Positions 4,149-63,759 of a DNA stretch of 64,000 nucleotides are shown here, one piece after another. Made by a program: the position numbers and the translations under genes. Within the stretch, counting starts at the first letter, position 1; each line of letters opens with the position of its first letter. The DNA is from a virus: the IMG/VR virus record IMGVR_UViG_3300031521_000039, positions 1 through 64,000 of that record; one strand, given 5' to 3'. The notes beneath the pieces are model-generated. The model saw only the letters and a program-made list of their open reading frames with translations. It did no database searches and was not told the origin of the DNA.

Positions 4149-4580
4149 AAAAATCACCTCCTCCAAAGTATTTTTCCTTAAAAATAACTTATTATATCTA
4201 AGGAAAAATACTTTGGATTATGGTTATTAGAACTATGAAAGACTACGTGCTTTACTATATTATTGTAGATATTAATCTAATATTTTAGTGTTTAAGTTTG
4301 GATATTGTTCAATTCATTTTTCATAACATTTAATTTTCAACCCTTTATCTATTTTAATACAGTAAACATATTATACCATAAAATTGGAAAAATGTAAAAT
4401 TAGATATTAATTTTTAGGATTGATTATAAATCGCTTGAAAAAGTGTTATAATATAGATATGGAAGGATAGATATTAATAAGTAGTCGACGATTTATTAAT
4501 ATTGAAAGGGTTATCTCCAATTAACCTTTCTTTCTATTTTATAAAATATTGGAGAATAAATTATATTGGAGGAATTTATT

Positions 4581-6188
4581 ATGGAAGAAATAAAAAGACA
4601 ATTAAACGAAGAAGATTACTTAGAATATATAGAACAATGGGAAATTGAAAACAAAGAATTGATTAAGAGTGGTAAATGTAAAAAAACTTTTACAAATAAT
4701 TTACCTAAATTAAAAACAGGAAGACTTAAAGGAACAACAGTTTGGGAAAACACCATAGAAAAATTAGTTTATTTTATTTATGGTAATGTTAAAGATTGGA
4801 TTACAATAATTGGTTATAATAAAGATACAAAAATGCTAACAGTTAAATATAATAATGTAGAATTTGATATATTGCATTGTAATTTTATAGCTTGTAAATT
4901 TGGAAGAAAAATTGGAGAAATTAAATATTCACATGAATTTAAATATAATGTTGGAGATAAAATAGAAGATAGAAGAAAATTATTGATTATAGATATGGAG
5001 AATAGAAAAGATAGAAGATGGTATAAATATCAATGTATTATTTGTAAAAATATAGATTGGATACGAGAAGATGCGTTAATAGAACAAACACAAGGATGTA
5101 ATTCTTGTAGTGGGCATAAAGTTATTTTTGGATTTAATGATATACCAACAACTGCTCCATTTATGGTTAAATACTTTCAATATGGATATGACGAGGCTAA
5201 ATTGTATACATACACAGGAAGTGGAAACCCAAATAATAAGACTGGTTTAATAAAGCCAATTTGCCCCGATTGTAAAAGAATTAGAAATAAATCCATTAGA
5301 ATTTATGATATATATAGAAATAACTCTATTGGGTGTTCATGCTCTGATTCTATATCTTTTCCAGAAAAAACAATGTTTAATATACTAGAACAATTGAAAT
5401 TAGATTTTCAAACACAATTAAATAAATCAAAATTTCAATGGTGTGATAAATATAAATATGATTTTTACTTTGAATATAATAACGAACAATATGTATGTGA
5501 GGTTCATGGGATTCAACATTACGAACAAACTAATAGAAAAAATTCAAGAACTTTAGATGAAGAACAAGAAAATGATAGAGTTAAGAAACAATTAGCTTTA
5601 GCAAATGGAATTAAAGAAGAAAATTATATTGTAGTTGATTGTAGGTATAGTGAATTGGAGTTTATTAAAAATAATAAGGATGGTATTTTAAATAGTAAAT
5701 TAAATGAATTATTTGATTTAAGAATGGTTAATTGGTTAAAATGTGAAGAATTTGCGTTAAGCAACAGATTAAAAGAAGCTTGTGACTTATGGAACAGTGG
5801 AATTCATAGTAGCACTAAAATAGGTACAAGGATGAAAATTCATGGAGCAACTATTATTAGATACTTAAAAACAGGTCGTAAAGTAAACTTTTGTGACTAT
5901 TCAAAAGACATATCTATAAAAGAAGTAATAAACAAAATGGTTTTGTCAACTAGTAAACCAGTAATATGTTCTGATAATGGAATAATATTTAAAAGTATAG
6001 CTAATTGTTCTAGAAAAAGTAAAGAATTGTTTGGTATAAATATATGTGAACAATCAATAGCAAATGTTTGTAATAAAAATTTAAAGCAAATTAGAACAAA
6101 AGGGTTTATGTTTAGGTATATTTCTGACCTTACACAAGAAGAAATTAAACATATTCAAGAAAATGCAAAATTAAATCAAGCGATATAA
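4581..6188 (+). CDS. zinc-ribbon + PD-(D/E)xK/Vsr-like nuclease + NUMOD1-like tail; putative free-standing homing endonuclease
   Basis: CxxC pairs; YKYDFYF..CEVHGIQHY..ENDRVKK nuclease motif; C-term KPVIC..FKSI..IANVC; paralog at 34711. Confidence 0.7.
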   Translation: MEEIKRQLNEEDYLEYIEQWEIENKELIKSGKCKKTFTNNLPKLKTGRLKGTTVWENTIEKLVYFIYGNVKDWITIIGYNKDTKMLTVKYNNVEFDILHCNFIACKFGRKIGEIKYSHEFKYNVGDKIEDRRKLLIIDMENRKDRRWYKYQCIICKNIDWIREDALIEQTQGCNSCSGHKVIFGFNDIPTTAPFMVKYFQYGYDEAKLYTYTGSGNPNNKTGLIKPICPDCKRIRNKSIRIYDIYRNNSIGCSCSDSISFPEKTMFNILEQLKLDFQTQLNKSKFQWCDKYKYDFYFEYNNEQYVCEVHGIQHYEQTNRKNSRTLDEEQENDRVKKQLALANGIKEENYIVVDCRYSELEFIKNNKDGILNSKLNELFDLRMVNWLKCEEFALSNRLKEACDLWNSGIHSSTKIGTRMKIHGATIIRYLKTGRKVNFCDYSKDISIKEVINKMVLSTSKPVICSDNGIIFKSIANCSRKSKELFGINICEQSIANVCNKNLKQIRTKGFMFRYISDLTQEEIKHIQENAKLNQAI

Positions 6189-7170: not shown

Positions 7171-9224
7171 ATGGCAGAATATAAAAATAGTATTCGTTTA
7201 GGAATTGCTTTAGAAAATGAAAAAGATGTTAATGGAAGACTACAAACTTTAATAAATACGTTAGAAAAAAATAAAATAAATTTAGATATAAATATTGAAA
7301 ATTCAGATGTTGCTAAACAATTAGAAGCATTGACTAATTTGGCAAATAATTTTAAAAATAGTTTAGGTGGAAAAGTATCATTAGGGAATATTAATGAAAT
7401 AATAAATCAAACCGTTGTACAGGCAGAAAAGTTAAATGGAGAATTACAAAAAGTTTCTAGAACCGATTTAGGAAATGGTCTGTATAAACAAACTGAGTTA
7501 GTAGCAACAGGACTTGGAGAAATTACTAAACAAACTGGAACTGTTCAAAAAATAGGGGATGAATTTAATTATACAGGAAGTGCTGTTCGTACGGCTACAT
7601 CAGATTTAGTCGGATATGATAATGCTTTATTAAAAATAGAAAAAGCACAATCATCGTTATCTAGTTTAAAGTTAGTAGACCAAAATAAAGTTTCGAATTT
7701 ATCAAGCAACTTAAATGCTAATGATATAGGTTCTAATAATGAACTAAAAAATCTATTGAATCAAGTTAAAGAGTTAGAGAATGAAGAAAAGAAGTTACAA
7801 CAAATACAAACCCAAGCATATTCAGAAATGGCTGTTTTGCAAAAAGAAGAATACTCACTTAAACAAAATCTAATTACCGCTGATGGTACTTATAAAAGTG
7901 AATTAGAATCTAGACTTGTGACAGTTAATCAATTAAAATCCGCACAACAACAAAATATACAGGATAATAATTTAACCAATCAGCAAAAAGAACTTGAGTT
8001 AACAAATCAACAAGTTAAATTACAAGAACAACTAAATCAAGCTAGAGCTAAACAGACAGATGTAAGTAATTCTAATGATTTAAAAACTCTTCAACAAGAA
8101 CAAGAATTATTACAAAAACAAGAACAAGCATATCAACAAATTAATGTATTGAAAGCTAATGGTGTTATTAATACATCTGAAATAAGCAAGCTTCAAGAAT
8201 TAGTACGAAGTGCATCATCAATAAAAGAAATAAATAGTGCATTAAGTTCTATAGGCACATCTACAAGTAGAGAAAGTTCTATTAGCACATTAACTAAGCA
8301 AATACAAGAAGCACAAGTAAAATTGGAGCAAATGAAATCTACGTTTGGCTCGAAATTACCTAGTGGTTTTATTTCGTCTACAGAAGCTGAATTAAATAAA
8401 CTATTAGCAGATTTAAAACAAGTAGATGGTACTAATTTTACAGGAATAAAGAATAGTTTAAATTCTGTAAATTCTAGTATGAAGCAAACAACAAGTGAAA
8501 CTCAACAATTAGTTAGTTCATTAAACCAAGCTGGTGGAAGTTCATTTTTTAGTAGTATGAGTAATTTTTTAGGAAAAATCGGAGTGTTTTATGGAGTTCA
8601 ACAAGTAGTTCAAGAAATAACAAGTCAGCTTAAAAGTGCTGGTGAATATACTTTAGTAATGGATAAGGCATTCACAAATATGCAAATGATAACAGGAAAG
8701 TCAAAATCTGAAATCGGTAGTTTAGTAAATGATTATAAACAACTAGGAGAACAATTACATACTACAAATGTAGAGATGATGGGTGGGATGGAAGAAATCA
8801 CAAGAGCAGGTATTCAAGGAGATGAAGGAAAATCACTTATGTCTTCTGCAATTATCGGTTCTAAAATTTCTGGACAAACCACTGAACAAACAACGCAACA
8901 ATTAATTGCTATTAAAAATGCTTTTGATATGACTGGTCAAAGTATGCAAAATGTTGTTGATATGATAAGTAAGATGGATAACGTGAGTGCATCGAGTTTT
9001 GCAGAAATTTCTACAGCTATACAAAGAACAGCATTCAGTGCTCAGGAGGCAGGAACTCCATTATCTAACTTAATCGCATATATTACGACTGTATCCGAGA
9101 AAACGCGTAAATCAGCTTCAACTATAGGCGAGAGTTTTAAAACAATCTACTCAAGATATAGTAATATCAAACTTGGGAACTTAGATGATGATGGGAAAAA
9201 TATTAATGATACCGAACTTGCCAT
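7171..9224 (+). CDS. tail tape measure protein, exon 1
   Basis: Coiled-coil N-terminus and TP901-type TMP core (IDKMDNVSASS..EKTRKSASTIGESFKTIYSRY); splicing joins GCC AT to G AAT AGA. Confidence 0.9.
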
Positions 9225-9512
9225 AAACTACAACTTGTGGCTTAATGGAGTAATCCATTTCGAATAACTCGCTTAATACGGGGAAGGCTAAATCTTTAAA
9301 AAGACATGCTAACCTACCGTGCTAAATTATTCTATATAAATAAATTATAGAATATAAAAGCCTAACGACTATTCCTTCGGGAAGTACGCATAAGTATGCG
9401 GAAATGGTGAGTCTCCTATTTAGGAGAGTGATATAGTCTAATCTTATGGGAAATCATAAGCAGTTCATTAGAGAACGGTATAGGAGTTAACGAACCTATA
9501 TGAATATAAATG
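9225..9512 (+). ncRNA. group I self-splicing intron (IA-like, no ORF) in the tape measure gene
   Basis: P1 GCCAT/GTGGC with U-G at the 5' splice site; P3 ACTCGC(9267)/GTGAGT(9407); P7 GACTA(9367)/TAGTC(9434); P7.1/7.2 stems; terminal G 9512; removal restores DTELAMNRIGIAIR in frame. Confidence 0.92.
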
Positions 9513-12500
9513 GAATAGAATCGGTATTGCAATTAGAACAAACAAAGGACAGTTTAAAGAATTTGATGTAGTTCTAAATGAATTCATGAATAAATTTAAG
9601 AGTGGTCAACTCAGTCAAGTTGATTATTTAGCAGGTGTACAAGCATTAGCTGGCACACGTCAACGAGAGACTTTAATGAGTTTAATGGAGAATATAGACG
9701 ACTTAAACGTACATCAGAAAGAAGTAGCTGAATCAGCTGGAATGTCTAAGAAAATGATGGATGAAGCTTATAATGGAAGTTTAGATGCTAAAGTAAATGA
9801 CTTAAAAAGAGCTTTTGAAGGATTATATGAAAAAATAATGTCTTCAGACTCTTTAAAATGGCTAATTACAGAAGCAACACAATTAGTAACTGCAATAGCA
9901 AATGTTGATGGAAAAACAATAGCATTTATAGGAACAATTGGACTTACTACAGTCGCTATATCTAAATTGGTAACTATGAATAAAATTTTAATGACAGAAC
10001 AGGCGGGAAATGGTCTTGCAACAGGTTTCTCGCATTTAATAGGAATATTAACTGGTATGACTCCACTCATGGGTACTACAACAGTAGCCACGCAAGCACT
10101 TGTTGGTGTTCAAGCAGAAGCAACTTTAGCAACCGAAGCCCTCACAATGGCAGAAGCACGTGCATTATTAGCAACCGAAGCATTGACAGTAGCACAAGAA
10201 GGACAAGCAACAAGTGCATTTGCAATAGGAGTAGCAGAAGCTGAAGTTATGCTTGCGACTGATGCATTAACTATAGCACAAGGAGAAGCAGTAATTGCCA
10301 CAGAAGCACTTGCAGTAGCCGAAGCTGAAGTAGTTATTGAATCAGCGGGATTGACTGGTGTTTCAGGTGCATGGGCATTAGTTACTGGAGGTATTGAAAG
10401 TGCAGTAGTTGCTTCATTATCATTTATGATGACTCCTATTGGATTGGTTATTGGTGCACTTGCTATAACTATAGGTATAGCAGGAAAAGCTTTTTATGAC
10501 TATAAACAACATGAAGCAGAAGTTGAAAAGCAATCAAAGTCACTTAAAGATGCAATAAATGGTGTAAATGAAGCTATAAAAAATGGAGATACAAAAGGAG
10601 CTTCTGATAAACTAGATAAACTTGCGGAATCAGAAAAAAAATATCAAGATGCATTAGAAAAGAAAAAGAAAATCGAAGCTGAAATCACCAAAGTACAGGA
10701 GGATATGACAAACAATCCTTTCAATGGTGAAGGAGATTTACAAGTATTAAATGTTTTACAAAGTGAACTTGAAGATGTGACCAAAGAATTAAATACTCAA
10801 GATGAAGCATTTAAGAAAGCAGGACTTAGTGCAGAAGATTATGCTAATATACAACAAAGTGTAGCTGATGCGAAAGTTGTTGATACAATAAAAGAGCAAA
10901 CCAAAGCACAATTAGAAAGTAGAGAAAATCTTGAAGGGGCTAAAAAAGAATATCAAGATTTTATAACTACGACTCAAGATTTATACACTGAATATCAAAA
11001 TTTATCATCACAAGAAAATTTATCAGCAGAACAAAAGACACAATTAATGTCAGTAACTGAACAATTACAATCTAAATTCACCGATTTAAATATTTCAGTA
11101 GACGAAAATGGTAAAGCACATATCGAAAACACTCCATTAATTGAAGAAAACATTTCATATTTATCTAGTGAAGGAATGACCGTAGAAACATTAACCAGTG
11201 TTCGTTTAGCAGATAGTAAGGCTTGTAGTGAATGGTCTGTAAATAATCAAAACATGACTTATACAGAAGTTATGAATAATATTGAGAATTATAAAACTGA
11301 AATTGAAGCTTTAGGTAAATTGGCAGAAGCTAGAAATGCTAATGCAAGTAACCCAGGTTTTATCGGACCAATTCAAGATACTGATTATGATAGTCAAATA
11401 AAAGATGCTACTGATAAAGAAAAGGCATTAGAAAGTGCTAAAACTAAAATTGATAGTATATATGGCTCTATAAAAGCACCAATTAATAATGCCAAATCAG
11501 GTGGAGTATCTGATGGTGGAAATTATATGCCTTCTGGTGGAGGAAAAGAAAAGAAAGCAAAAGAAGTAAAAGACTATACAGATGATATTGCTAAACTTAA
11601 ATCCACAGATGATATTGACAGATATGCTGACGTTAATAGTGGATTAACTTTAGTAAATAATTCTTTAAAAGAGAATAAATTATTACAGGACGCAACTACT
11701 GGTACAGAACATCAAAATGCGTTAAAACAAGAATTAGTATTATACGAACAAAAAAGAACTGCTATAATGAAGATTGTTGACGAACAAAAAAAAGATATGG
11801 AAGAAAGAAAAACGGCATTACAACAATCTGGGTTTGAATTTGATGCGAATGGAAAACTACTTAATGGAAGACAAAAATTATTGGAATTACAACAACAGGC
11901 TAATGCTATGGGTGGGAATACTGAGGCTGAAAAAACTGCTAAGGAAGATGCGATAAAAAATGTCAAGGATTTAATTAGTAATACAAAGGAATATACAGAT
12001 TTAGTTAATACTAAGATTCCAGAAAATATAAGTCAATGGGAAGAGTTAGCTAATACTATTAAAAAGACTCAACAAGAAACAGTATCTAAGCTTAGAGATG
12101 AGTTAGTTGATGATTTAAAAAGTCAATATGAAGAAGATAAAGATGCTGAATTATCTAAGTTAGATGAAGTTTATAAGGCTGATAAAGATAGATTAGAAAA
12201 AGAATACAAAACTGATTCTGAGAATCTTAAGAAACGTAAAGAGTCTGAAATAGATTTCTATCAACAACAAATTGATAAGTTACAGAAAGAACTTGACGAT
12301 ATTGATAATGATTCAGTTGAGAAAAAAACTAAATTAGCAAAGCTTCAAGCCGAATTAAAATTGTGGCAAGCTGACACATCTGTTTTTAGCAAAAAGAAAC
12401 AAGAAGATTTATCTACTGAGATTTCAAAATTGCAAAAAGACATTAAAAAAGATGATTTAAAGAATCAAATTGAGGCTTTGAAGAAAGAACAAGATGCTAA

Positions 12501-13404
12501 AAAAACAACACAAGATACAGAATTAGATGATTTAAAGACTAGCAATGATAAAGAAAAAGATGAGATAGAAACAAAATATAACAAGCAAAAACAAGTCGCT
12601 GAAGATAAATATAAAGAAATGTTAAAAGATAAGAATTTATATGTTAAAGCTAATGAAATGATGACAAAAAACCAACAAGAACAAATGATTGAATTGCTTA
12701 AAAAGTATGACACTTCATATAAAGATGTTGGATTAATGTTATCAAAGAGTCTTACCGATCCATTTTTAGAACGCATAAAAGCAGTACAAGAAGCTATGAA
12801 AGGATTGGGCATTGCTAATATAGGTGATTCAAATGGTTCATCATATACTACTAGTCAAAAATCAAGTGTAGCAGATAAATTTACCAATAAAACTTCAAGT
12901 GGAACTAATTATTATTATGATGGTAATAATATAATATCCGATGCATATATACCAGATGAAGAAAGACAAAAGATATTAGACAATATAGCTGGATATGATA
13001 CTGGTGGCAGAACTCCAAGTAATATATCTAACAAAGGTGTACTAGGTATACTTCACAAAGATGAAAAGATATTAAATGCAGAAGAAACAAAACAAACAGA
13101 TAAAAATACTGAAATGATTAGTGGAATATATGCCTATATCACTTCAACAAGTGGAGCATTAATATCACAATTATCTAGTCAGTATTCAAATCCTAGTAAT
13201 TATTCATTGCCAAGTCTAGTAGGAACTAATTTAAATGGAATTGCTAGTAATGTTACAAATACTTCAAGTAATGTATCACAACCAATTAATATAAACTTTG
13301 GAGACATTATTAATCATAATGGTGCAGAAGCCAATATGAATATGGATAAAATAATTAAAACAGTAAAAAAATCAATTAAAGAAGACGGAAGACTATACAG
13401 ATAA
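9513..13404 (+). CDS. tail tape measure protein, exon 2 (spliced product ~1981 aa)
   Basis: Same frame as exon 1; NRIGIAIR..LAGTRQRE, Ala-rich repeats, C-term GYDTGG..LHKDEKILN. Confidence 0.9.
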
Positions 13405-26730: not shown

Positions 26731-27861
26731 GTGTATTTAATTATGCAAAATAAGATAATTGATTGTGGAATATATAAAATTATAAATAAGACAAATGGTA
26801 AACTTTATGTCGGTAGTAGTAAACATATTCATCAAAGATGGGACGAACATAAAGAAATGTTAGTAAATAATAGACATCATTCTATAAAACTTCAAAGAGC
26901 GTGGAATAAGTATGGCAAAGATAATTTTAAGTTTGATATAATTCAAGAGTGTAAAGAAAGTGAATTACTAGATGTTGAGCAAAGATGGATAGATGAATTA
27001 GATTCATTTAAAAATGGTTATAACTGTACCAATGATACAAAAAATCCATTTAAAGAATATGATAAAACCAATAAAGAAGAAACCTTGGAAAAGTATCATA
27101 ATATATTACTAGAAATGAAGCAAGGAATTTACTTAATAATTACTGAAAAAGCATATTATGAAAGAATGTTAGAAAAAACAAATAAGAAAACATATGACTA
27201 TAAAAGAATAGCCACTATTATGTATTGGTTTAAAACTAATTTTGATATTACTAAATATATTTTATATATAGATATTAAGGGTAAAAAGACAACAAATATA
27301 AATATACAAATATGGGATATGAAACAAAACAAATGTTTATATGATTACATAGAAAAAACTAAAACAATATATTATATAGGAACTGTATTAAAAGGAAGAA
27401 GTGAAATAATAGACAATACATTTAAAATTGATAAAGAAAATCCATTTTATAAATATAATTACATAGGAAAAACCTTTATCTTAGACATGGACAATATAAC
27501 TTATTTAGCAAAAGATGATGTCAAATTATATTTTGAGTATATTTATAATAGAAATGCTTGTGAGTTGCATTTTAAAAGTAGCAAAGCTGGAAAAGTTACA
27601 TTTGATGACGAAATAAGAATGGAGTATACAAATTATATTGATATATTAAAAACTATTTATATAGAACAATATAAAAATGTAAAAATTATAATAAACGAAA
27701 TATTACAAAATTTATATAATATTGTTTTAGATAAGAACCAAATAAAATCCGTAGAACAAAATTTAAAAAAATATAAAATATATGGGGAGTTAAAGAGTAT
27801 CTGCAAAGAATACAATTATAAATATAAAACATCAAAAGGCACTATTGTTATCTATAATTAA
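26731..27861 (+). CDS. GIY-YIG endonuclease
   Basis: CGIYKIINKTNGKLYVGSS..RWDEH..GYN. Confidence 0.85.
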   Translation: MYLIMQNKIIDCGIYKIINKTNGKLYVGSSKHIHQRWDEHKEMLVNNRHHSIKLQRAWNKYGKDNFKFDIIQECKESELLDVEQRWIDELDSFKNGYNCTNDTKNPFKEYDKTNKEETLEKYHNILLEMKQGIYLIITEKAYYERMLEKTNKKTYDYKRIATIMYWFKTNFDITKYILYIDIKGKKTTNINIQIWDMKQNKCLYDYIEKTKTIYYIGTVLKGRSEIIDNTFKIDKENPFYKYNYIGKTFILDMDNITYLAKDDVKLYFEYIYNRNACELHFKSSKAGKVTFDDEIRMEYTNYIDILKTIYIEQYKNVKIIINEILQNLYNIVLDKNQIKSVEQNLKKYKIYGELKSICKEYNYKYKTSKGTIVIYN

Positions 27862-34710: not shown

Positions 34711-36135
34711 ATGAGACAAGTATTTATAGATAAACTACCTAAGAAAAAGAATAGTTTTAATTGGGAAAAATCCATTGGTTATATTGTAAATTTCGTATAT
34801 GATAATATTAATGGAAAATTAGAAATAGTTAATTATCAAAAAGGGTATTTATTTGTGCGTTATAATAAAATAACAACTAAAATTTTCACAGGTTCTTTTA
34901 CAAATGGAAGAATAGGATGTATTATAGGTAAAAAGACAAAAGATTTTAAAATAGATGTTGGACAAGCTATAAAAGATGAAAAAAGAAACATTATAATTAC
35001 CAATAGAGAATATAGAAAAGATAATAAAGAGAAACAATGGAAATGGTATAAATACACATGTAATGTGTGTGGTTGGACTGAAGGTTGGACAGAAGAATTA
35101 GCTTTGTTAAAAGAGCACAATTGTGCATGTTGTACTAATAAAAAGGTGGTTCAAGGAATAAATGATATTACAACTACTAATCCAGAAATGATTTGCTATT
35201 TTCAAGGAGGATATGATGAAGCTAAGTTATATACTTATGGAAGTAATGAAGAAATATATCCTATTTGTCCAAACTGTGGTAGAATAAAAGACAAAAAAAT
35301 GAAAATATACACAATATATAAACAACATTCAATAGGATGTACTTGTTCTGACGGTCATTCATATCCTGAAAAATTTATATGCTCTTTATTGGAACAAATT
35401 AATATAAATTTCATATATCAAGCAACAAGATTAGATTTATCTTGGTGTAATAATTATAGATATGATTTTTATTTTGAATGGAATAATGAGTCGTATATTA
35501 TAGAAACACATCAGCTTCAGCATTATAAGGATAAAACACGAGATAGTAGAAGAACTTTTAATGATGAACAAAATATAGATAATCAAAAAAAAGAATTGGC
35601 TTTAAAAAATAATATTAATCATTATATAATTTTAGATTGTAGAAAATCAGAATTGGAATGGATTAAAAATAGTGTTATGGATAGTAAGTTGCCTAATTTA
35701 TTATATTTTAAAGAATATAGTATAGATTGGTTAAAATGCAATGAATTTGCTTGTAGTAATTTAGTAAAAGCTGTTTGTAATTATAAAAAGAGTAATCCGG
35801 AGATTATGCCCTCCAAAATAGCAAAGATTTTTAAAATAGCACATAATAGTACAATTAATTACTTAAAACAAGGTGTTGAATTAGGTTGGTGCTATTATAA
35901 TCCAAAAGAAAGTAGAATAAAATCAACCAAAAAGAATGGTCGAAAAAATGGAAAGGAAGTTGAAATATTTAAAGATGGAATTCCTTTAGGAAAATTTCCT
36001 AGTTGTGCTGAATTATCAAGACAATCTGAAAAACTATTTGGAGTTAAATTGATAGCAAATAGTATATCGTCAGTTTGTCAAGGGAAACAAAAAATGTATA
36101 AAGACTTTATGTTTAAGTACATTATAAAATACTAA
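34711..36135 (+). CDS. zinc-ribbon nuclease, putative homing endonuclease (paralog of 4581-6188)
   Basis: Shares GYDEAKLYT, PICP.C, SIGC.CSD..S.PEK, Y.YDFYFE with 4581 ORF. Confidence 0.7.
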   Translation: MRQVFIDKLPKKKNSFNWEKSIGYIVNFVYDNINGKLEIVNYQKGYLFVRYNKITTKIFTGSFTNGRIGCIIGKKTKDFKIDVGQAIKDEKRNIIITNREYRKDNKEKQWKWYKYTCNVCGWTEGWTEELALLKEHNCACCTNKKVVQGINDITTTNPEMICYFQGGYDEAKLYTYGSNEEIYPICPNCGRIKDKKMKIYTIYKQHSIGCTCSDGHSYPEKFICSLLEQININFIYQATRLDLSWCNNYRYDFYFEWNNESYIIETHQLQHYKDKTRDSRRTFNDEQNIDNQKKELALKNNINHYIILDCRKSELEWIKNSVMDSKLPNLLYFKEYSIDWLKCNEFACSNLVKAVCNYKKSNPEIMPSKIAKIFKIAHNSTINYLKQGVELGWCYYNPKESRIKSTKKNGRKNGKEVEIFKDGIPLGKFPSCAELSRQSEKLFGVKLIANSISSVCQGKQKMYKDFMFKYIIKY

Positions 36136-46896: not shown

Positions 46897-47934
46897 ATGC
46901 GATTTAATATGGGAAGACAAACTAATAAAGTATTATTAACTACACCAGAAGAAATCAATAAAATATTAATTAATAACAAGGAGTTAACACAAGATTTTAT
47001 AAATTATTTAGAAACGACAGATCATTCGCCTAAGAGTATTGTAGTCTATAAAAATAATTTGAACATCTTTTTCGTGTATTTAATGCAAAAAGAAAAGAAT
47101 ATTGACTTTGTAGATATTAAAAAAAGACATATAATGAACTTTCAAAATTTTATGATTAAAGGAGGATTAAGTCCAGCTAGAATTCGTAATATCAAAAGTA
47201 CGCTCTCCTCATTAGGCTTATTTATAGAAGCAATTTTAGATGAAGAAAAAAAATGGGAAAACTTTAGAAATATAATTAACAAAATTCCAAGTCCTAGTTT
47301 GTCTTCAACTAGAGAAAAAACAATATTGTCAGATGATGATTTAGAAAAACTACTAGATAAATTGGTTGAATTAAATAAAATACAAATTGCTTTATTTGTG
47401 GCAATGTCAGCATTTAGTGGGACTCGTAAAGCTGAGACGATTCAATATAAAAGAAGTTTCTTTACTGAGGATAATTGTAAAAATGGATTATATGTAACTC
47501 CTGAGATCAGGACGAAAGGGCATGGTTCTAAGGGAAAGCCACTTGTAAAATATTGTCTTAAATCTAAAGTTGATAAATATTTAGATTTGTGGGACATAGA
47601 AAGACAAAAACAAAATATCGAATTAGATGATTTATTTGTAACAAAGAGAAAAGGAGAATGGATACCTGCTTCAATAAGTACAGTAGATAGTTGGATGGGA
47701 AAATGTAGTGAAATATTAGGAGTTACAAGTTATGCTCATATGTATCGTCACTTTTTCATTTCTTATCTTCGAAGAGAGTCAGTTCCTATCGAAATAATTA
47801 AGGATATTGTAGGTCATGAAGATGTATCTATGAGTCAAAAATATGACGATAATCCTAAAGAAGATGGGTTCTTAAAATATTTTTCAGAAGATGGAATAAA
47901 TAAAATTGAAGATAAAAAATTGTCTGATTTATAA
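46897..47934 (+). CDS. tyrosine recombinase/integrase family protein
   Basis: Catalytic R (SGTRKAE), K (RTKG), HMYRH, VGH, Y (SQKY). Confidence 0.9.
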   Translation: MRFNMGRQTNKVLLTTPEEINKILINNKELTQDFINYLETTDHSPKSIVVYKNNLNIFFVYLMQKEKNIDFVDIKKRHIMNFQNFMIKGGLSPARIRNIKSTLSSLGLFIEAILDEEKKWENFRNIINKIPSPSLSSTREKTILSDDDLEKLLDKLVELNKIQIALFVAMSAFSGTRKAETIQYKRSFFTEDNCKNGLYVTPEIRTKGHGSKGKPLVKYCLKSKVDKYLDLWDIERQKQNIELDDLFVTKRKGEWIPASISTVDSWMGKCSEILGVTSYAHMYRHFFISYLRRESVPIEIIKDIVGHEDVSMSQKYDDNPKEDGFLKYFSEDGINKIEDKKLSDL

Positions 47935-54562: not shown

Positions 54563-54631
54563 AATTACACTACCTTCCTATTATGTATTAATTTATTGAA
54601 TTAACTTAAAAGTATGATTTTAAGTGGTTAT

Positions 54632-55015
54632 TTAGAAATCGAGCCTAGTGATAGCCTTATTCTTAGAACGCATACTAGTTAAAATAAGATATAATTCACT
54701 TGATTTTCTAATACCAGCAATCTTTTGACATATATCAGTCATTATTATTTGTTTTATACCAATTGAGTTTTCAAGAATGTCTCTTTCATGACAATATATT
54801 TGACATTGAACTCCATCTTCATTGAAATAGTAATATTTATCAACAATTTCCTTTTTATCTTTCTTAATTTCAGAGTTAAATTTTTTAAAAGTATTTGAAA
54901 TATCAATAAGAACTTCATCAATATTTCTTATATCTCCATTTGGTAGATGAGTTACAATATTAATTTTAGCTAGAACATCTTGTACATGTATTTATTTTAA
55001 AACTAATGCTAACAT
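54632..55015 (-). pseudogene. TMP-core-like mini gene with an in-frame TAA at codon 8
   Basis: ATG overlaps dUTPase stop; MLALVLK*IHVQDVLAKINIVTHLPNGDIRNIDEVLIDISNTF...IAGIRKSSEL, open for 119 further codons. Confidence 0.55.
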
Positions 55016-56170
55016 TATTTCACCCCCGTACTTGAATATCCACCCCTATTTACATCTCCAAGTTGTTCTACTATTTCAAATTCAACATTTTCCATAACTC
55101 TATCAACTACTTCAAATTGTAAGATTCTATCATCGTAGTTTATTTCTCCATTTTTAGTACACCAAACCATTGCTCCCCATTCATCATCATTTCCTTGGAA
55201 TTTATTATCTATTTGACCCACTGAATTAGTTAAAATAAATCCATAATTTTTAAACATTCCTGAACGTGGATAAACATTAGATTTCTTATTAGGTGGCATC
55301 TTCATTGCAAATCCCAATTTAAAGAATAAAGTATCTCCAAAGCTATATTTACAAGGGAAAGTTGTTTCTACTCCATTCTTGAACACTCTACTTACTCTAA
55401 GATCCACTAAGTCTCCACCATCAATCTTTTCCATAGGTGTAATATTTTTATCTATGTATCTTACTTGTAATTTCATTGGCTCTAATTGTTCTTCATTTTT
55501 ATTATTAAGAATAAGTCTTATAACATCATTTACAATATCACTATTGCCATTATAGAAAATATAAATAATTTTCTCTGCACAACCAGTAGTATAAGTTTCT
55601 ATTTTTTGAATCATTTTCATATTTGATAAACTACTATTTTTTGTTCCTAAGTCATTGCATAATAAGTCCATAGTATTAAATTCTAAATCTAGCTTATAGT
55701 TATCACCCACTTCTAAATTATCCATATTAGTATCTGATAACGGAACTTCAATTAATATTAATTTATCATTACCTAAACTTATTATATTTGTCTCGTATAT
55801 GTAATCAATTAAAAATTCCTTATTATTAATTTTAACAGTTATATTTGGAACACTTGGTGTTATATATTTTGTTTGAACTTTATCTATGATTTCTGCCTTC
55901 ATATGTTCTAGTGTTTCCTTATTATTAAAATCCATTGTATATCCTTCTTCTATATCAATTGTTGATTTAATTTTATTATTCATTCTAAACTCTCCTTCTA
56001 ATTCATCTATAATTTTTCTAATTTCTTCTTGATATAGACCGTTAAAAAACCATGAGTATTGAGAGTTTTCATTAGCTTGTCTATATATTATTTCAGCTTT
56101 GCAGATAGTTAATAATTCTGTTATTGATTTTTCATGATAATATTCTTTAAGTTTGTTTATATTGTCATTC
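55015..56170 (-). CDS. dut: trimeric dUTPase with long N-terminal extension
   Basis: DLVDL, PRSG, NSVGQID..G, ILQF, RGGYSSTG in the C-terminal ~150 aa; additional in-frame SD+ATG at 55983. Confidence 0.85.
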
Positions 56171-56282
56171 ATTTTTAATCTCTCCTTTGATTTATTTCGT
56201 TTTGGCGACTGCACTTGTGAATAAGTGTATTGGTTAAATTGATAATTGGTAATACATGGTAAAATGTAGCAATTTAGCAGGT

Positions 56283-56480
56283 TTATTTTGCTTCATATAT
56301 TGCTATATGTGTAGGGTTATAATCATTTTCATCAACTTCATAAATCATATCGTTCCATTCAAAATATGGATATCCTGTTTGCTTTACTAATTCAAAGAAA
56401 ATATTTATGTTTCCTATAAATATGTATTTAGATAATAATATTTCTTCCTTTTTAATATTTGTTTGTGGTTTTATATTCAT
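56283..56480 (-). CDS. hypothetical protein
   Basis: SD AAGGAG. Confidence 0.6.
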   Translation of the reverse strand: MNIKPQTNIKKEEILLSKYIFIGNINIFFELVKQTGYPYFEWNDMIYEVDENDYNPTHIAIYEAK

Positions 56481-56699
56481 TACAATCTCTCCTTTTTCAC
56501 CATTCTATTATTTTATTAACTGACAATAAAATATCTGTTTTAATAGAATATTTAGTTTTTAACCTAGCCTATAGCCCCATTCTTAAAATTGATTTTTTGT
56601 ATTTTTAGTAATTTTGACGAATTTCACTATAGTTGCTTTAGATTTAATTTTTCTTGGAATTTTCGATATTTACTTTTAAAATCAATCCTAGAGCGTTTT

Positions 56700-57170
56700 T
56701 TAATAATCTAATCCCTTTTTATAAATATGTTGATTTGAAGTTGCAAGTTTCACGTTATATTGTAAATTATTGTCACATCTTAATTCTTCTATATACCTTC
56801 CTGTTTTTATATAATCACATAATTCTAATTCAAATTTAGGACAGTCTTTTAAATCATATCTAGTAAATAACCATATTGGTTTATTTAATGTTTTTAAATC
56901 TCTTAACATTTGTTCTAATTCGATATGATTTTGGTCATTAACTTCTCCTCCAAATATCTGTATTGAAGTTATCATATTATTAAAATCTTGAACTTTAGTT
57001 TTTATATTCTCAAAATACACCTTATTATATAAATCTCCCTCGTTAAAGTTCCAAGACTCAGGATTATGGCAGTTGGGGCAATGACCTAATTTGCCATCAC
57101 CCTTGCAACCTGCTACATATATTTCTAAGGCTCGTCTACTTAAAGTATATTGAGTGGCTAATACATTCAA
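56700..57170 (-). CDS. nrdG: anaerobic RNR activating radical-SAM enzyme
   Basis: YVAGC..HCPNCHNPESW, GGE, DYIKTGRY, LATSNQ; directly after nrdD. Confidence 0.85.
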   Translation of the reverse strand: MNVLATQYTLSRRALEIYVAGCKGDGKLGHCPNCHNPESWNFNEGDLYNKVYFENIKTKVQDFNNMITSIQIFGGEVNDQNHIELEQMLRDLKTLNKPIWLFTRYDLKDCPKFELELCDYIKTGRYIEELRCDNNLQYNVKLATSNQHIYKKGLDY

Positions 57171-59096
57171 TTATTTACTAGCCTTACCTATAGAATCTGA
57201 ATTGTACATTTGTCTATTTGGAGCATCTTCTTCTCTTCTAACTTTGTGCCAGTTCTTAATATTAGTTAAGAAGCCAACTACTCTTGTATAAAAATCTTCA
57301 ATTTCAGCACCACATATAGGACAAATATGGTCTGAACCTACTGTCATATGACCATTAGCACATTTTCTTAACATATAATTAATTGCAAAATATATTACTC
57401 CTTGCTTTGCACATGTTTCAATTAATAACTTCATATCTTCTACATTGTCTAGTCTTTCATCACAAGATATATGCATTATTGAACCACCAGAAAAATATTT
57501 ATCAAATGTTCCTTGAAGTCTTATTCTATCTAGTAAATCTGCATTTACTATTAATGGTATAAATTGATTAGAATACAAGTTATATTCTGTTTGGTACTTT
57601 AATAGTTGGTCTTTTGATGCTAATTTAATTGATACATTTTCTGCTGGAATTTGCTCACAATTATGAGGAGTTTTAAATCTCTTTTGCATTTTGTCATTAA
57701 CTGTATTTATTATATTAATGATTTCTAACCCTAATTGCATTCCATTCTCTGTTTTAATATCTTCTCCTAAATATGATATTGCTTCATTAAATCCATTAAT
57801 TCCACAAGTTGAGTATTGAGTATTAATATCTACAAATCCTAAGTCATATAATGGGTGATTTCCATTATCTATTCTTTTTTGAACTATTTTTCTTTTTGTA
57901 TGATTAATTTTTGCACACATCTCAACTAATAAAGCTAATTCTTTTTTAAATTCTTCTTTATCATTTTGATATTTTATTGATAATCTAGGTAAATTAATTG
58001 TACAAACTCCTAAACTACCAATTTTACTTGAACCACTTCCAAAACTATTAAAATATTCATTAGTAGTTTCACTACGAAGTCTACAACAAGAAGATAATGT
58101 GCTAGTCTTACCCATATACATGTTTATAAAAGCAAATTTCATATTCTTTTCTGCTATATAATTAACAAAACCTATATCTTGTAATTCTTGATTATCATTT
58201 ATACTAAAACAAGCTGTTGTAACAGGAAAAGTTATTGGGGTTCTTTCTTGTTCTCTATTCATAATATCTAAATATAAATTTTGCATCTTTTTAACTATTT
58301 CTCTATCAGGATGACTACCATCTGGAAATATGTAATCATTAATCATCTTATCTAAGAATCTACCATCATAAATTGATACATTAGTAAATGGGGATTGATT
58401 CCCTCTCATTGGTTGGTTTATTGTATATATAAATGATGTTAATTGTGAGTCAACATAGTTCCAACAATCTTCTTCTGTCATAAAAGAAAAATGTTCATCT
58501 CTTTTATTTTCTATTATATTTTTAACATAGTAACTCATTACAACTAATAAATCTGCTAGTCCACAAGCTCCTAATGTTGAATTACTTGCAACTACTACGA
58601 ATTGTTCTAATTGAGATTTGAATGCAGTTAGATATTTAGGTGGTACACTATGTATTTTTTTAACCATACTAAGTCCATTCATCATAATGTCATATGTAGA
58701 ATAATTATAACAATATGGTAATCCACCTCCTACGCCTATAAAATCATTTATGTAAATATCACCAACTAAATTCTTTTCTACAACTTCATTTGCAAATCCT
58801 AGTCCATATAAAGCTTTAGATTCTTTCCACATCATATAGTAACTGTTTATCTTTTCAAAAGGTTTTTTCAATTCAGTTGAATAACTAATTACTGAAACAT
58901 CATCTACATTACTATTTTGATCTACAGATATATCTGTAGTAGTTTTTACTTTTTTACTAAAGAATCCTTTTGAAAATTTAGCTAAGTCTAACTGTGCCCC
59001 TATTCCATCCATATCAAATAACTCACTTGGATATTTACCTCTTAGATACATCATTAAATCATCGAATTCTCTTTCATAGCTTGTGTTAATATACAT
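57171..59096 (-). CDS. nrdD: class III anaerobic ribonucleoside-triphosphate reductase (no ATP cone)
   Basis: QSPFTN, TFPV, SSCCRL finger loop, TINLPR, PAEN, GGS, CPICG..YTRVVGFL glycyl-radical motif. Confidence 0.95.
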   Translation of the reverse strand: MYINTSYEREFDDLMMYLRGKYPSELFDMDGIGAQLDLAKFSKGFFSKKVKTTTDISVDQNSNVDDVSVISYSTELKKPFEKINSYYMMWKESKALYGLGFANEVVEKNLVGDIYINDFIGVGGGLPYCYNYSTYDIMMNGLSMVKKIHSVPPKYLTAFKSQLEQFVVVASNSTLGACGLADLLVVMSYYVKNIIENKRDEHFSFMTEEDCWNYVDSQLTSFIYTINQPMRGNQSPFTNVSIYDGRFLDKMINDYIFPDGSHPDREIVKKMQNLYLDIMNREQERTPITFPVTTACFSINDNQELQDIGFVNYIAEKNMKFAFINMYMGKTSTLSSCCRLRSETTNEYFNSFGSGSSKIGSLGVCTINLPRLSIKYQNDKEEFKKELALLVEMCAKINHTKRKIVQKRIDNGNHPLYDLGFVDINTQYSTCGINGFNEAISYLGEDIKTENGMQLGLEIINIINTVNDKMQKRFKTPHNCEQIPAENVSIKLASKDQLLKYQTEYNLYSNQFIPLIVNADLLDRIRLQGTFDKYFSGGSIMHISCDERLDNVEDMKLLIETCAKQGVIYFAINYMLRKCANGHMTVGSDHICPICGAEIEDFYTRVVGFLTNIKNWHKVRREEDAPNRQMYNSDSIGKASK

Positions 59097-59112
59097 TTAT
59101 ACATCTCTCCTT

Positions 59113-59334
59113 CTAGTTGTTTATTACTTCTTGTAAAGTTTTTAATTTATTATCAACCACTATTAATGGTAATGATAGCATGTCGTTTTCTTGTGCTAAT
59201 TTTATATATTTATCTTGTTCTTCTTGTGGTAATTCATTTAATAATTTATATTCAAACTCCATACCTTTATTTGTTAGAACTGTTTTAGTCATGTTACAAG
59301 CTGAACAATTTTGTTTTCCTATTAATAAAATCAT
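59113..59334 (-). CDS. NrdH/glutaredoxin-like protein
   Basis: CSAC motif and LSLP cis-Pro; adjacent to nrdD. Confidence 0.85.
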   Translation of the reverse strand: MILLIGKQNCSACNMTKTVLTNKGMEFEYKLLNELPQEEQDKYIKLAQENDMLSLPLIVVDNKLKTLQEVINN

Positions 59335-59508
59335 TTAAATTTCCTCCTTAATATAAAGTCCACATATGCAAATATCTTTCTCTCTTTTGTCTTTGCAAGG
59401 ACATTTAGTATCCTCATTTTCAATAATCATACATGGACAATATTTGTTATTTGCTAATACTTTCATTGCTACTTCTTTTCTTTTTTTAATGTCTGGATTT
59501 AATATCAT
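59335..59508 (-). CDS. minimal ferredoxin-thioredoxin reductase catalytic-subunit-like protein (57 aa)
   Basis: Translated by hand: ..YCPCM..TKCPCK..ICICGLY (CPC/CPC/CxC signature); stop abuts the glutaredoxin ATG. Confidence 0.8.
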   Translation of the reverse strand: MILNPDIKKRKEVAMKVLANNKYCPCMIIENEDTKCPCKDKREKDICICGLYIKEEI

Positions 59509-59551
59509 TGACATCTTTCAAATCACTCTCTTTCTATTTTGTTATATTAAT

Positions 59552-60319
59552 TTATTTAAAATGACTTTCAGTAAGTAGATTATTACTTAGTAAAAATGCT
59601 TTAAGCTCTACTTTAATTTCTTGGATATCATTATATTTACCCATATCAAATACAGGAATATCATATGCTTTAGCTATTCTAATTGCTTGTCCTGTACCTC
59701 CACTACCTTTACCTTTCTTAGTCCAACATATAACAAATGCTGAAGGTGTTTCTAAATCTTGCCCTAATACTTGATGACTGTTTCTAGCTTGTAATTTTTG
59801 AGCACCTTGTTTTAAATTAAACCAATAAGGATGATATTTTTGTGCTATTTCAAAAGCTTTAGGATTAGATACTATTAACTTTGAATCAGAATTTTGAAAT
59901 CCACTCCAAGGTAAATATATTTCTTTATCACCATTAACTTTATCACATCCATTTTCAAATGCTTTATCTGAACCGTCAGCACCACCAGAACGTAATTTGA
60001 ATCCTTTGTTAGCAAAATATGTACCTAGACTTTCAAATAGTTCTAATATTTCTTGTGGTGTTTCTCTTGAACCTATTCCTGCATAATATATATTCATTAT
60101 ATTATTATCGCCTAATGTATATTTATTGTCATTTGATATAATAGTAGGCATTTCATATGTTATTCCATTTGCTTCAAATCTTAGCATATGTGTGTTAACA
60201 TTTTTATTTGAAAACTCATCTAAAACTTTATCAGTTTGTTCTTGTTCCATTCCACTAGCTTCGTCAATAATTCCTTGTTGAGACTTAGCTCTTAGACCTC
60301 TAACCATTTTATCATCCAT
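59552..60319 (-). CDS. SLOG/DprA-like nucleotide-binding protein with N-terminal extension
   Basis: YAGIGSRETP, LRSGGADGSD, ARNSHQVLG, SGGTGQAIRIA. Confidence 0.8.
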   Translation of the reverse strand: MDDKMVRGLRAKSQQGIIDEASGMEQEQTDKVLDEFSNKNVNTHMLRFEANGITYEMPTIISNDNKYTLGDNNIMNIYYAGIGSRETPQEILELFESLGTYFANKGFKLRSGGADGSDKAFENGCDKVNGDKEIYLPWSGFQNSDSKLIVSNPKAFEIAQKYHPYWFNLKQGAQKLQARNSHQVLGQDLETPSAFVICWTKKGKGSGGTGQAIRIAKAYDIPVFDMGKYNDIQEIKVELKAFLLSNNLLTESHFK

Positions 60320-60321
60320 AA

Positions 60322-60624
60322 TTATAATTCAACTCCTTTACATATATTTTTATATTTATCTATATTGTTGTTTCTAACAGTCATTTGTTTTACATTATCA
60401 AGCATTACATTACGTGCATCAGCAAATTGACTAAAGAAATCATTCTTTTCTAGTTCCTTATTTACTTCTTCTGTTATTGTTTTATATATTTTAGATTTAT
60501 TACTCACAAATTGTTTATATACTTGCTTAGTATGTATTTTCTTTCCTAAGTATGGAATCTTATGATACCATTTATCTTTAATAGTAACCATGTCTCTTAA
60601 TTCTTGTTCTTTACATTTATCCAT
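60322..60624 (-). CDS. hypothetical protein with a major-capsid-like segment
   Basis: SD AGGAG; NKSKIYKTITEE..NDFFSQFADARNV. Confidence 0.65.
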   Translation of the reverse strand: MDKCKEQELRDMVTIKDKWYHKIPYLGKKIHTKQVYKQFVSNKSKIYKTITEEVNKELEKNDFFSQFADARNVMLDNVKQMTVRNNNIDKYKNICKGVEL

Positions 60625-60643
60625 TGAAAATTCTCCTTTTTAT

Positions 60644-61006
60644 TTATTCTTCATCTTCAAATTCTTCAAAATCCTCTTGTTGTTCCTTAATAATATTCCT
60701 GAATATCTTCTTATTTAAAATTTTCTCATCAATAGTCTCATCTAATTTAGACAATCCTTTTATCAATTCCATTTTATATTCAAGTTCTTTCTTGGCATGT
60801 TCACAATCACATCTAGTAGGTGATACCCATTGAGTTTGATTGTTTATTTTAAAGATTCTCCATTCATCAGATTCCACTTCATTATCACAGTATATACATA
60901 TATCATAGCCATCAGGATTTTTATATGTTCTTGATGATAGCAAATCTTTTAAATTAATGTATCCAGTTTCTAACTTATAATATTTTTTCATTTTATTATC
61001 ACACAT
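60644..61006 (-). CDS. hypothetical Zn-finger protein
   Basis: CIYC..CDC. Confidence 0.65.
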   Translation of the reverse strand: MCDNKMKKYYKLETGYINLKDLLSSRTYKNPDGYDICIYCDNEVESDEWRIFKINNQTQWVSPTRCDCEHAKKELEYKMELIKGLSKLDETIDEKILNKKIFRNIIKEQQEDFEEFEDEE

Positions 61007-61120
61007 TCTTTCTTATATTAATTTATTAACTCTTGATAAAATCAGCATTTCATTGTATTATTCAACCTCTGTATGCTAGTGATAGACCCATTGTTATTTT
61101 TTATCTTTTATGAAAATTGG

Positions 61121-62038
61121 TTATTTCGCTTCAATAAATTCTATACTACCAACTATATTTCCAGCTTTAAATTCTTTATATGATTTGAATAATTTAACCT
61201 TCATTATTCTATCATGTGAAAGTTCCCCTACGCCTCCTATTATTTTTACACCACCACATCCCATTACAAAAGCTTTATTATACGAATTTCTTGCAATTAC
61301 ATTTTCTCCAGTATATACATTATTTATATATGTTTTTACGGTATCGCCAATATGTAATGGTATTAAATCAATATCTACTATTCCAGCATCTTCTCCCACA
61401 ATACTTTCTTCAAACATTTTTAGAGTAAGTTTAACTTTATTTTCTTTTAGATACCATTTACCTTCTTGCAAAGCCTTATGAGAATTACTATACTTTGATA
61501 ATACTTCTAAGATTTTATTAAATGTGCCATTGAAATTATTATCTCTAAACTTTAACATAAATTCTGCAAATTGATTTTCATTTACTATATCACATACTTT
61601 AGCAAAAGATATAGATTCTTCATCTAATTTTATATATGTAGTATTTAGCCATCTTTCACAAAAAATGATTGGTGCTAATTTATTTTCTTTTACAACAGAG
61701 ATATGTTTATTCTCACCTCCACTTATTTGTAATATGTTTTCTGATTTTGTATCTTTAAATTTTGTTCCTTCCTTAAAATTTAATATTTCTGATAATTTGT
61801 ATATATCGTTTGTATTGTCATATGCAATTTCATCATTATCGTCATCAACAAACCATCCTAAATCATAAGTATGTTCTTCTCCAATATCATCTAAAATTGT
61901 AACTAAAGTGTTGAATCTATTATATTTATAAAATTCTGCTTTAATAATCGTATGTGACTTCTTTCCAGTAAGTGGTGTTCCTTGATATATTAAATTTTTA
62001 CCTACTAATTCTTTTCTTATTTTATCTGTTATTATCAT
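61121..62038 (-). CDS. hypothetical protein
   Basis: 305-aa ORF, SD AAGGAG. Confidence 0.7.
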   Translation of the reverse strand: MIITDKIRKELVGKNLIYQGTPLTGKKSHTIIKAEFYKYNRFNTLVTILDDIGEEHTYDLGWFVDDDNDEIAYDNTNDIYKLSEILNFKEGTKFKDTKSENILQISGGENKHISVVKENKLAPIIFCERWLNTTYIKLDEESISFAKVCDIVNENQFAEFMLKFRDNNFNGTFNKILEVLSKYSNSHKALQEGKWYLKENKVKLTLKMFEESIVGEDAGIVDIDLIPLHIGDTVKTYINNVYTGENVIARNSYNKAFVMGCGGVKIIGGVGELSHDRIMKVKLFKSYKEFKAGNIVGSIEFIEAK

Positions 62039-62101
62039 TTTTCATTTTCTCCTTTATATTTAGTTATATTAATTTGTTAAATTTCAGTTAAAACTATTCT
62101 T

Positions 62102-62215
62102 TTATTTATTCATAACTCTAGCATATATACTTTTCAATGAATTTGCTATTTTTAAACTATTCTTATATGTAGAATTAGATAATAATTGTAATGCTTCTAA
62201 TTTAGTTATATTCAT
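62102..62215 (-). CDS. 37-aa peptide with TMP-like motif (MNITKLEALQLLSNSTYKNSLKIANSLKSIYARVMNK)
   Basis: Translated by hand; SD AAGGAAG; own promoter TTGACT-17-TATTAT. Confidence 0.65.
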   Translation of the reverse strand: MNITKLEALQLLSNSTYKNSLKIANSLKSIYARVMNK

Positions 62216-62895: not shown

Positions 62896-63759
62896 TTATT
62901 TTTTAATCATAGTTATAGCTTTTTCTGTTTCATTTGCAATCTCTACTGTGTTATTAGCAAGTTCTTGAACCGCTGAACTAGTTTGTTCCATACATGCACT
63001 TACTGAAATCATTCCATCATTTATTCCTTCTATACGTGATATTCTAAGTACATTACTTTCTTTGAGTTTCTTACTATTTTCTTTACCTGTTTCAGTTTTT
63101 TTAAGAATAATATTAGCTGTAACTTGTAAGTCTTCTACAATTTTACTAATCATTGTACTTGAGTTTTTAGTTTCTTCTGCAAGTTTTTTAACTTCATTAG
63201 CTACAACTGCAAACCCTTTGCCAGCATCTCCTGCTCTTGCAGACTCTATACTTGCATTTAGCGATAAAAGATTAGTTTGATTAGCTATTTCTTTGATTAC
63301 ATTTGTTATTTTAGAAATATCTTTCATTTTTACATATAATTCATTTGCATTATTATAGTTGTCAACATTATCATTATGGAATACTTCCATAATTCCACTA
63401 TTATTTTTTGCACTCTCATATGCAAGATTAACTTCTGAAGTAATATGAACTATATTTGATGTTACTTCTTGTATAGTAGCACTTATTTCTTCAACTGAAC
63501 CTGCTTGACCGGTAATAGTATTGTTGATAGTTTCTATTTCTGTAAGTATATTTTTACCTACTTTATTTGTTGATTTTTTATATTCTTCGAATTCTTTATC
63601 TTTACTAATTAAAGTTGTATGTAGTTCTTTATTTTTTAATTCTAGTTCTTTGATTTTATTATCACTTTCTAGTTTAAGTGTTTTTAACTTGTTGTCCATT
63701 TCCTTTTCTAAAGATTCTCTTAGTTCTTGTAGTCCTTTTGTATTTTTAAATATTTTCAT
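62896..63759 (-). CDS. soluble methyl-accepting chemotaxis signalling-domain protein
   Basis: [38 protein letters not shown]; no TM or sensor domain. Confidence 0.9.

Follow-up and report, generated by a model that had tools for sequence, protein, structure and literature searches.

We analyzed a 64,000-nucleotide stretch of viral DNA (the window), which corresponds to bases 1-64000 of the 85,197-bp single-contig IMG/VR virus record IMGVR_UViG_3300031521_000039, and within it a minus-strand gene at 54632-55015 that lies in the early arm of the phage and resembles a tape measure protein (TMP). Sequence and profile comparisons confirm this gene as a homolog of the C-terminal module of the TMP domain PF10145, with a likeness beyond chance, and place it in what appears to be a previously undescribed family of small (~50-130 amino acids, aa) early-region proteins homologous to this conserved TMP module. 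The copy carried by the window is probably inactivated by a nonsense codon and non-functional in this strain. The original prediction had described four short sequences between 54632 and 62215 as fragments of virion and packaging proteins, two of them TMP-like, one resembling the terminase Walker B motif and one the major capsid protein, all expressed early as decoys against pattern-recognition defenses. Three of these four fragments proved to be at chance level, so that no multi-epitope decoy system is present, and in the region 54632-62215 this large peat phage has a leftward arm of ordinary early and nucleotide-metabolism genes.

Homology of the early gene family to the TMP domain

The homology was recovered from the side of the small proteins as well as from the side of the TMPs. 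A profile of seven small early proteins containing zero TMP sequences (A3) was searched against 1.84 billion protein representatives and returned, besides small proteins, five long proteins at E-values of 1e-6 to 3e-4, all five of which are bona fide TMPs (Pfam PF10145 E 1e-47 to 1e-76). A TMP-domain hidden Markov model (HMM) made from seven foreign TMP domains was run unfiltered over all 1306 stop-to-stop frames of the genome, and ranked the second exon of the phage's own TMP first (1.6e-10), the first exon second (5.5e-7) and the frame at 54635-54991 third (1.2e-5), with the next frame at 0.95. Reciprocally, an HMM of the small family that was built without TMP-like rows and run over 2942 frames from this genome and related loci matched, behind its own members, the phage's own TMP at E 1.1e-4 (residues 9-75 of frame 9484-13401) and the TMP of a related phage at 1.7e-3, noise beginning at E 0.23. 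Direct alignment of the small family (A8) with TMPs (A7) in hhalign gave a probability of 92.3% and an E-value of 5.7e-7 over 50 columns, which fall inside the PF10145 match of P0016. In addition, tblastn of the family member P0020 against 50,697 phage records found 25 that matched, 21 of them annotated as TMPs and some with 97% query cover, with two others unannotated, two named "Phage protein" and one labeled smc. The resemblance of 54632-55015 to a TMP was thus borne out, and more strongly than had been claimed, by the A3 profile, the two HMMs and hhalign.

Within PF10145 the match covers roughly the last quarter (about positions 147-201), which forms the C-terminal module, and the shared residues follow the pattern L..IGI....nG..R.i..VL.dlS..FK, succeeded by a second helix with L.G.R...L..L; aligned to these positions of PF10145, the early family shows the pattern L..lGi..rd..G.mr....il..l...f. 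An AlphaFold2 (AF2) model of the intact relative P0003 (pLDDT 88, pTM 0.76) consists of a small hairpin and three helices, and an insertion specific to the family in the relatives of the early gene folds with high confidence. The best fold match of this model in BFVD was a "minor tail protein" (E 0.027, probability 1.0), with further entries of that name among the top rows. Foldseek of the same model against the PDB gave no match at E <= 0.001, VIA-align returned only generic helical hairpins at Z <= 7, and the ESM Atlas gave low recognition with implausible topoisomerase clusters. The single frame at 54635-54991 had no TMP family match in PHROGs or Pfam, and pairwise blastp against the two open reading frames (ORFs) in which the TMP of the window was called was suggestive only (E 0.06-1.7).

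The early protein differs from a PF10145 TMP in that it stands alone at 50-130 aa rather than forming part of a protein of 600-2000 aa, is encoded in the early arm on the strand opposite the tail genes, has neither the remainder of the domain nor the coiled-coil ruler or hydrophobic segments, and scores below the gathering cut-off. That the early protein might itself be a functional TMP was rejected in view of its 127 aa, its minus-strand location in the early arm, and its coverage of only about the last quarter of the domain. Three candidate relatives were also set aside, namely P0015 and P0029 from the representative search, which are repeat artefacts, and the 84-aa L007:7616-7870, which was not accepted as a family member at a small-family HMM E-value of 0.23.

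A nonsense codon interrupts the early gene

The coordinates 54632-55015 coincide exactly with the early gene, 128 codons counted with its stop. The ATG of the early gene, at 55015-55013, overlaps the stop codon of the upstream dUTPase gene (TAATG) and is preceded by the ribosome-binding site (RBS) GGGGGTG, an arrangement from which translational coupling of the two genes is predicted. Codon 8 is an in-frame TAA, beyond which another 119 codons are open until the stop at 54632. Because of this TAA, translation under table 11 yields only a 36-aa ORF (54632-54742), and the sole canonical restart, the ATG at 54742, would give a product made of the last 36 residues only.

When the 119-residue frame was used as a query, three intact proteins of 126-127 aa came up, with identities of 94, 77 and 73%; each starts with MLALVLK and continues with E, D or N at the position of the stop in the window. 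Profile searches added members at 48-55% identity as well as more distant ones, such that the intact relatives (P0003-P0007 and P0010; n=6) are ORFs of 115-129 aa with 48-94% identity. Since these intact relatives carry E, D or N at codon 8, 54632-55015 is a conserved gene of 127 codons that is broken in this strain. Logan contigs from two runs (X1 record 1 and X4 record 24) span the TAA site with zero differences; this agreement argues against a simple assembly error, with the qualification that the runs may include the source sample. No matches were obtained by tblastn of the 54635-54991 frame or of P0018, and DNA of contigs carrying the family relatives or the 305-aa neighbor was not found in viral, metagenome or genome contig collections.

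The TMP gene of the phage and its group I intron

The TMP gene of this phage is split by an ORF-less group I intron inside the PF10145 domain. Rfam RF00028 matched at 9220-9460 with 67.2 bits (cut-off 50) and E 4.9e-17, a match that the default-filter Rfam scan of the whole window had missed. Reading the splice points from the sequence as close to 9242 and 9513, we infer that the exons join in frame (Table 1). The module resembled by the early gene begins exactly at the start of exon 2. As a separate observation, unspliced TMP RNA would yield a product of 698 aa whose end lies immediately ahead of the module that the early gene copies. The identity between the early family and the module of the phage's own TMP is only ~25%, which indicates an old family and not a recent copy.

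Such an intron also provides a way in which short ORFs with the C-terminal part of PF10145 can arise (for example P0028), as the TMP gene is split at 9243-9512. Unlike split-TMP fragments of this kind, the gene at 54632-55015 and the related P0008 are encoded in early arms, a long way from the TMP gene, have starts of their own, and share ~25% identity with the TMP module.

The module in a related phage and its cassette-like presence

Comparison with a related phage, represented by the IMG/VR loci L003-L006 (L004 deriving from a 130-kb contig rated 74% complete), showed DNA identities to the window of 90% in the NrdH/D/G block and 89% in the dUTPase domain, and the C-terminal 153 aa of the dUTPase protein of the window (55015-56214) are 92% identical to the protein at L004:7656-8462. 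L004 lacks the early gene downstream of the dUTPase, and its arm contains the module twice. One copy is the 91-aa protein P0008 (L004:3176-3451), which occurs on 26 contigs; the second forms the N-terminal extension of the 268-aa dUTPase protein at L004:7656-8462, which gives a sub-threshold PF10145 match (profile positions 152-191) and of which P0009 is a 68-aa stand-alone version. The claim that late-protein epitopes occur in the early arm as stand-alone peptides or as N-terminal tags on enzymes therefore held for the TMP module, in the form of the early gene and of the dUTPase of the relative, and failed for the other motifs.

Contigs from other peat strains depart from the window sequence at two places, 55025 and 54606-54665. 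As these points are the borders of the early gene, the gene behaves as a replaceable cassette. The early arm more generally combines conserved blocks with swapped cassettes in a mosaic; for instance, the DprA-like gene and the 100-aa gene (59552-60624) form an indel relative to L004:3942-4171, which is ~230 bp long in that phage. Between NrdG and dUTPase, L004 also has an extra 188-aa ORF (L004:7017-7583, plus strand) whose product is putatively endonuclease-like, where the window has the 65-aa ORF at 56283-56480.

The other three fragments

The second sequence that had been assigned to the TMP, 62102-62215, has its best local match at TMP residues 640-665, with 10 of 25 residues identical, a score reached by 2 of 300 shuffles. 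In blastp against the small set of ORFs of the window its E-value was 0.41, the TMP-domain HMM gave E 37 even though it covers that part of the TMP, and the small-family HMM gave no hit. The fragment at 60394-60513, for which no TMP likeness had been claimed and which thus served as a control, was likewise equaled by 2 of 300 shuffles against TMP exon 2. Given the weak blastp and HMM values and the same shuffle score in the control fragment, the TMP likeness of 62102-62215 is attributed to chance. The 37-aa ORF may well be a real leader gene. A further candidate interpretation, in which this ORF would be what is left of the 5' end of a P0008-like gene, was dropped after neither DNA similarity nor an HMM hit was found.

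The putative terminase fragment at 60212-60319 is the start of an extension (residues 1-75, 60095-60319) that precedes the DprA-like domain, and its likeness to a terminase comes down to the word GIIDEA, read there as QGIIDEA. A Walker B motif has four hydrophobic residues before D/E, and the sequence of two hydrophobic residues followed by DE occurs 17 times in the long ORFs of this genome. The fragment has no Walker A motif and matches no terminase family of PHROGs or Pfam at E up to 10. Phage homologs of the DprA-like protein align only from about residue 67, and a search with residues 1-75 found only this phage's own cluster, which marks the extension as lineage-specific.

For the supposed capsid motif at 60394-60513 and the 100-aa protein that contains it, no capsid family was found in Pfam or PHROGs at E up to 10, the only matches being those to phrog_4088 and, weakly, DUF5482 that are given in Table 1; PDB sequence searches with the 100-aa and 255-aa proteins gave no match. 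When all four fragments were compared by blastp with 35 kb of the late region of the relative, none scored below E 0.16. The related phage has neither the DprA-like gene nor the 100-aa gene. To judge from these comparisons, the 37-aa ORF, the DprA-like extension and the 100-aa protein are unrelated early genes whose likeness to TMP, terminase and capsid is due to chance. Across the four fragments there was no significant profile match to the large terminase subunit (TerL) or the major capsid protein (MCP), by which the multi-epitope model is largely refuted.

Possible function of the TMP-module family

The best explanation, which we regard as somewhat better than an even bet, is an ordinary early arm containing one TMP-module gene family that acts as a mimic and is broken in this phage. 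From the position of the gene among early and nucleotide-metabolism genes, an intact family product would be made early, and its homology and position suggest that it would act as a molecular mimic of the TMP module. The mimic would compete for whatever normally binds this module, candidate partners being a host defense that senses or binds TMPs, a host entry factor, or the tail-assembly partner of a competing phage. A TMP mimic is plausible in principle from the literature on TMP-binding defenses.

Several points weigh against this explanation. The mechanism is read from homology and position only, and the verified genomic contexts of the module come from two phages only. The PF10145 gathering score of 33.2 bits is not reached, there being no hit for the window frame or P0008, and scores of 13.9 bits for the L004 dUTPase fusion and 22.7 bits for P0022 fall below the cut-off; P0028 alone passes (44.8 bits) and is itself perhaps a fragment of a TMP. 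Some of the short metagenomic family members could likewise be pieces of split TMP genes. At ~25% identity the early family is not a close copy of the TMP module of its own phage, and the gene must be dispensable for this strain since it is broken here. Furthermore, the TMP segment sensed by Avs18 by itself triggers cell death, and for that reason a copy of the module could trigger rather than block such a sensor.

The early family may also be a trigger-homologous anti-defense decoy, either alone or tagged onto an abundant early enzyme, that would occupy but not activate TMP-recognizing immunity (Avs18-like STAND sensors, SNIPE-type DUF4041 nucleases or Tab-like blockers), with the cassette being gained, lost and pseudogenized as host defenses change; we hold this to be distinctly unlikely. 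Mimicry could also be absent altogether, in which case the module would be a general adaptor or regulatory fold that is related to TMPs by descent and is accessory to dUTPase or nucleotide metabolism. This would account for the relative's dUTPase (L004:7656-8462) carrying the module fused at its N-terminus, for the coupling of the early gene to the 3' end of the dUTPase gene in the window, and for the neighboring NrdH, NrdD and NrdG. Because P0008 does not adjoin the dUTPase gene in the relative, stand-alone members of 52-98 aa are common, and no known dUTPase regulator has this fold (PDB searches returning generic helical hairpins only), we nevertheless consider such a role fairly unlikely. 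Co-folding of the dUTPase protein with P0003 lent the pairing no support (score 0.03).

Decay is a further alternative, in which a piece of TMP exon 2 moved to the early arm through recombination linked to the intron or to homing endonucleases and is now functionless. Identity of ~25% to the phage's own TMP module implies that no recent transfer took place, six diverged relatives keep intact frames, the family-specific insertion folds confidently, and paralogs exist in a second phage, all of which make a relic very unlikely, even though the homologous TMP segment begins exactly at the start of exon 2 beside a group I intron, the genome has several free-standing homing endonucleases, and the copy in the window contains a nonsense codon. 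Least credible by far, to the point of being nearly dismissed, is the model from which the analysis started, in which two TMP, one terminase Walker B and one capsid epitope form a clustered early decoy system against several pattern-recognition defenses. TMP, capsid, terminase and portal are indeed known defense triggers (PMC13581612), and one of the four epitopes is a true homolog of the TMP module. That sole real member is broken in this phage, however, while no profile backs the terminase or the capsid likeness at E up to 10, the Walker B claim depends on a five-residue word, the DprA-like extension has no relatives beyond its own cluster, the DprA-like and 100-aa genes are missing from the related phage, and the 37-aa ORF is at chance level.

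Relation to known systems

The mimic explanation can be compared with several defenses that act on TMPs. SeAvs18 binds the most conserved, helical and central segment of ~130 residues of the TMP, which is necessary and sufficient for activation (PMC13581612). The early family may be comparable in that it copies part of the most conserved domain of Gram-positive-type TMPs; the TMPs sensed by SeAvs18 are from coliphages. The DUF4041 domain of SNIPE binds TMPs during injection (PMC13190303), and Tab of JBD26 blocks tail assembly through the TMP (PMC10884400). Both show TMPs being bound directly by defense proteins, and these would be possible partners of a mimic; they are defense proteins and not mimics themselves, and none was found in the window.

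DSAD1 of phage SPbeta blocks DSR2, a sensor of tail proteins, by occupying the sensor (PMC10981675, PMC11087589). Its proposed likeness to the early family is one of functional analogy. DSAD1 is not known to be a homolog of the tail tube trigger of DSR2, and a decoy homologous to its own trigger would be a different principle. A phage countermeasure aimed at TMP recognition was not found in the literature searched.

As recent work shows several defenses (Avs18, SNIPE and Tab) to sense or bind TMPs, the idea of a TMP mimic is timely, and the TMP-module family, including the dUTPase fusion, offers a concrete and cheap set of candidates. This phage carries a dead copy of the TMP-module gene. A more general lesson is that most motif resemblances noted without database searches in AT-rich, lysine-rich phage ORFs fail profile tests.

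Genomic setting and gene map

The record has a CheckV completeness of 34%, a figure that suggests a phage much larger than 85 kb, and is present in many runs of peat metagenomes, among which no RNA run was listed. Its GC content is ~26%, and the strand skew switches near 49 kb. Up to this point, the plus strand (1-48.9 kb) encodes tail, lysis and structural genes, including the TMP called as two ORFs, sheath-like and Dit-like proteins, fibers, amidases, three homing endonucleases and an integrase; starting at 49.4 kb, all genes up to the contig end are on the minus strand and are early or replicative. PHROG and Pfam scans recognized no terminase, portal or major capsid gene in the contig, the Pfam terminase and capsid families had zero matches in the 85-kb record or in the 130-kb relative, and PHROG scans of the large late ORFs of the relative identified neither TerL nor MCP. 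Megablast and blastn of the region found no close relatives among isolated phages, only scattered matches to the DprA-like gene. The features discussed here are collected in Table 1.

Table 1. Coordinates, strand and supporting evidence for the TMP gene and for the genes of the early arm in the window.
Feature	Position	Strand	Evidence or remark
TMP exon 1 (predicted 3' end)	7171-9242	+	PF10145 positions 3-145 at residues 521-663 (Pfam 8.9e-19); PHROG TMP families
ORF-less group I intron (predicted borders)	9243-9512	+	Rfam RF00028
Module resembled by the early gene, within own TMP	9508-9708	+	Small-family HMM 1.1e-4
TMP exon 2 (predicted start)	9513-13404	+	Translation; PHROG TMP families
Early TMP-module gene, 127 codons	54632-55015	-	Intact relatives and profile, reciprocal HMM, hhalign, tblastn
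In-frame TAA, codon 8 of the early gene	54992-54994	-	Relatives have GAA, GAT or AAT class codons
399-aa protein with C-terminal dUTPase domain and lineage-specific N-terminal part	55015-56214	-	phrog_135 E 7.5e-17
65-aa ORF	56283-56480	-	
NrdG	56700-57170	-	
NrdD	57171-59096	-	
NrdH	59113-59334	-	
59-aa Cys-rich FeThRed_B-like protein	59335-59514	-	
255-aa DprA-like (SLOG-type) protein	59552-60319	-	phrog_768 E 1.4e-59, residues 76-240
100-aa protein	60322-60624	-	phrog_4088 (function unknown) E 1.1e-6; weak DUF5482 E 0.003
120-aa protein, unknown	60644-61006	-	
305-aa protein, unknown	61121-62038	-	
37-aa ORF	62102-62215	-	RBS; just downstream of the region's best promoter-like site

Several further genes of the record deserve mention. 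The tyrosine integrase at 46897-47934 (plus strand; phrog_1 E 3e-31) lies at the junction of both arms. The free-standing homing endonucleases are located among the tail genes at 4566-6188, 26731-27861 and 34711-36135, all on the plus strand; two of the three are paralogs (phrog_4538/HNH type) and one is of the GIY-YIG type, with a homolog of the first type also present in the late region of the relative (L012:8599-10203). In the early arm, the small Cys-rich protein at 59335-59514 resembles the catalytic beta chain of ferredoxin-thioredoxin reductase (PF02943; score 25.9 bits, cut-off 22), is encoded directly upstream of NrdH/NrdD/NrdG, and has a near-identical counterpart in the relative (L004:4209-4388). 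Finally, the minus-strand gene at 62896-63759 encodes a 287-aa protein with a coiled coil and a methyl-accepting chemotaxis signaling domain (PF00015 E 3e-32), which is conserved in the related phage (L004:586-1452).

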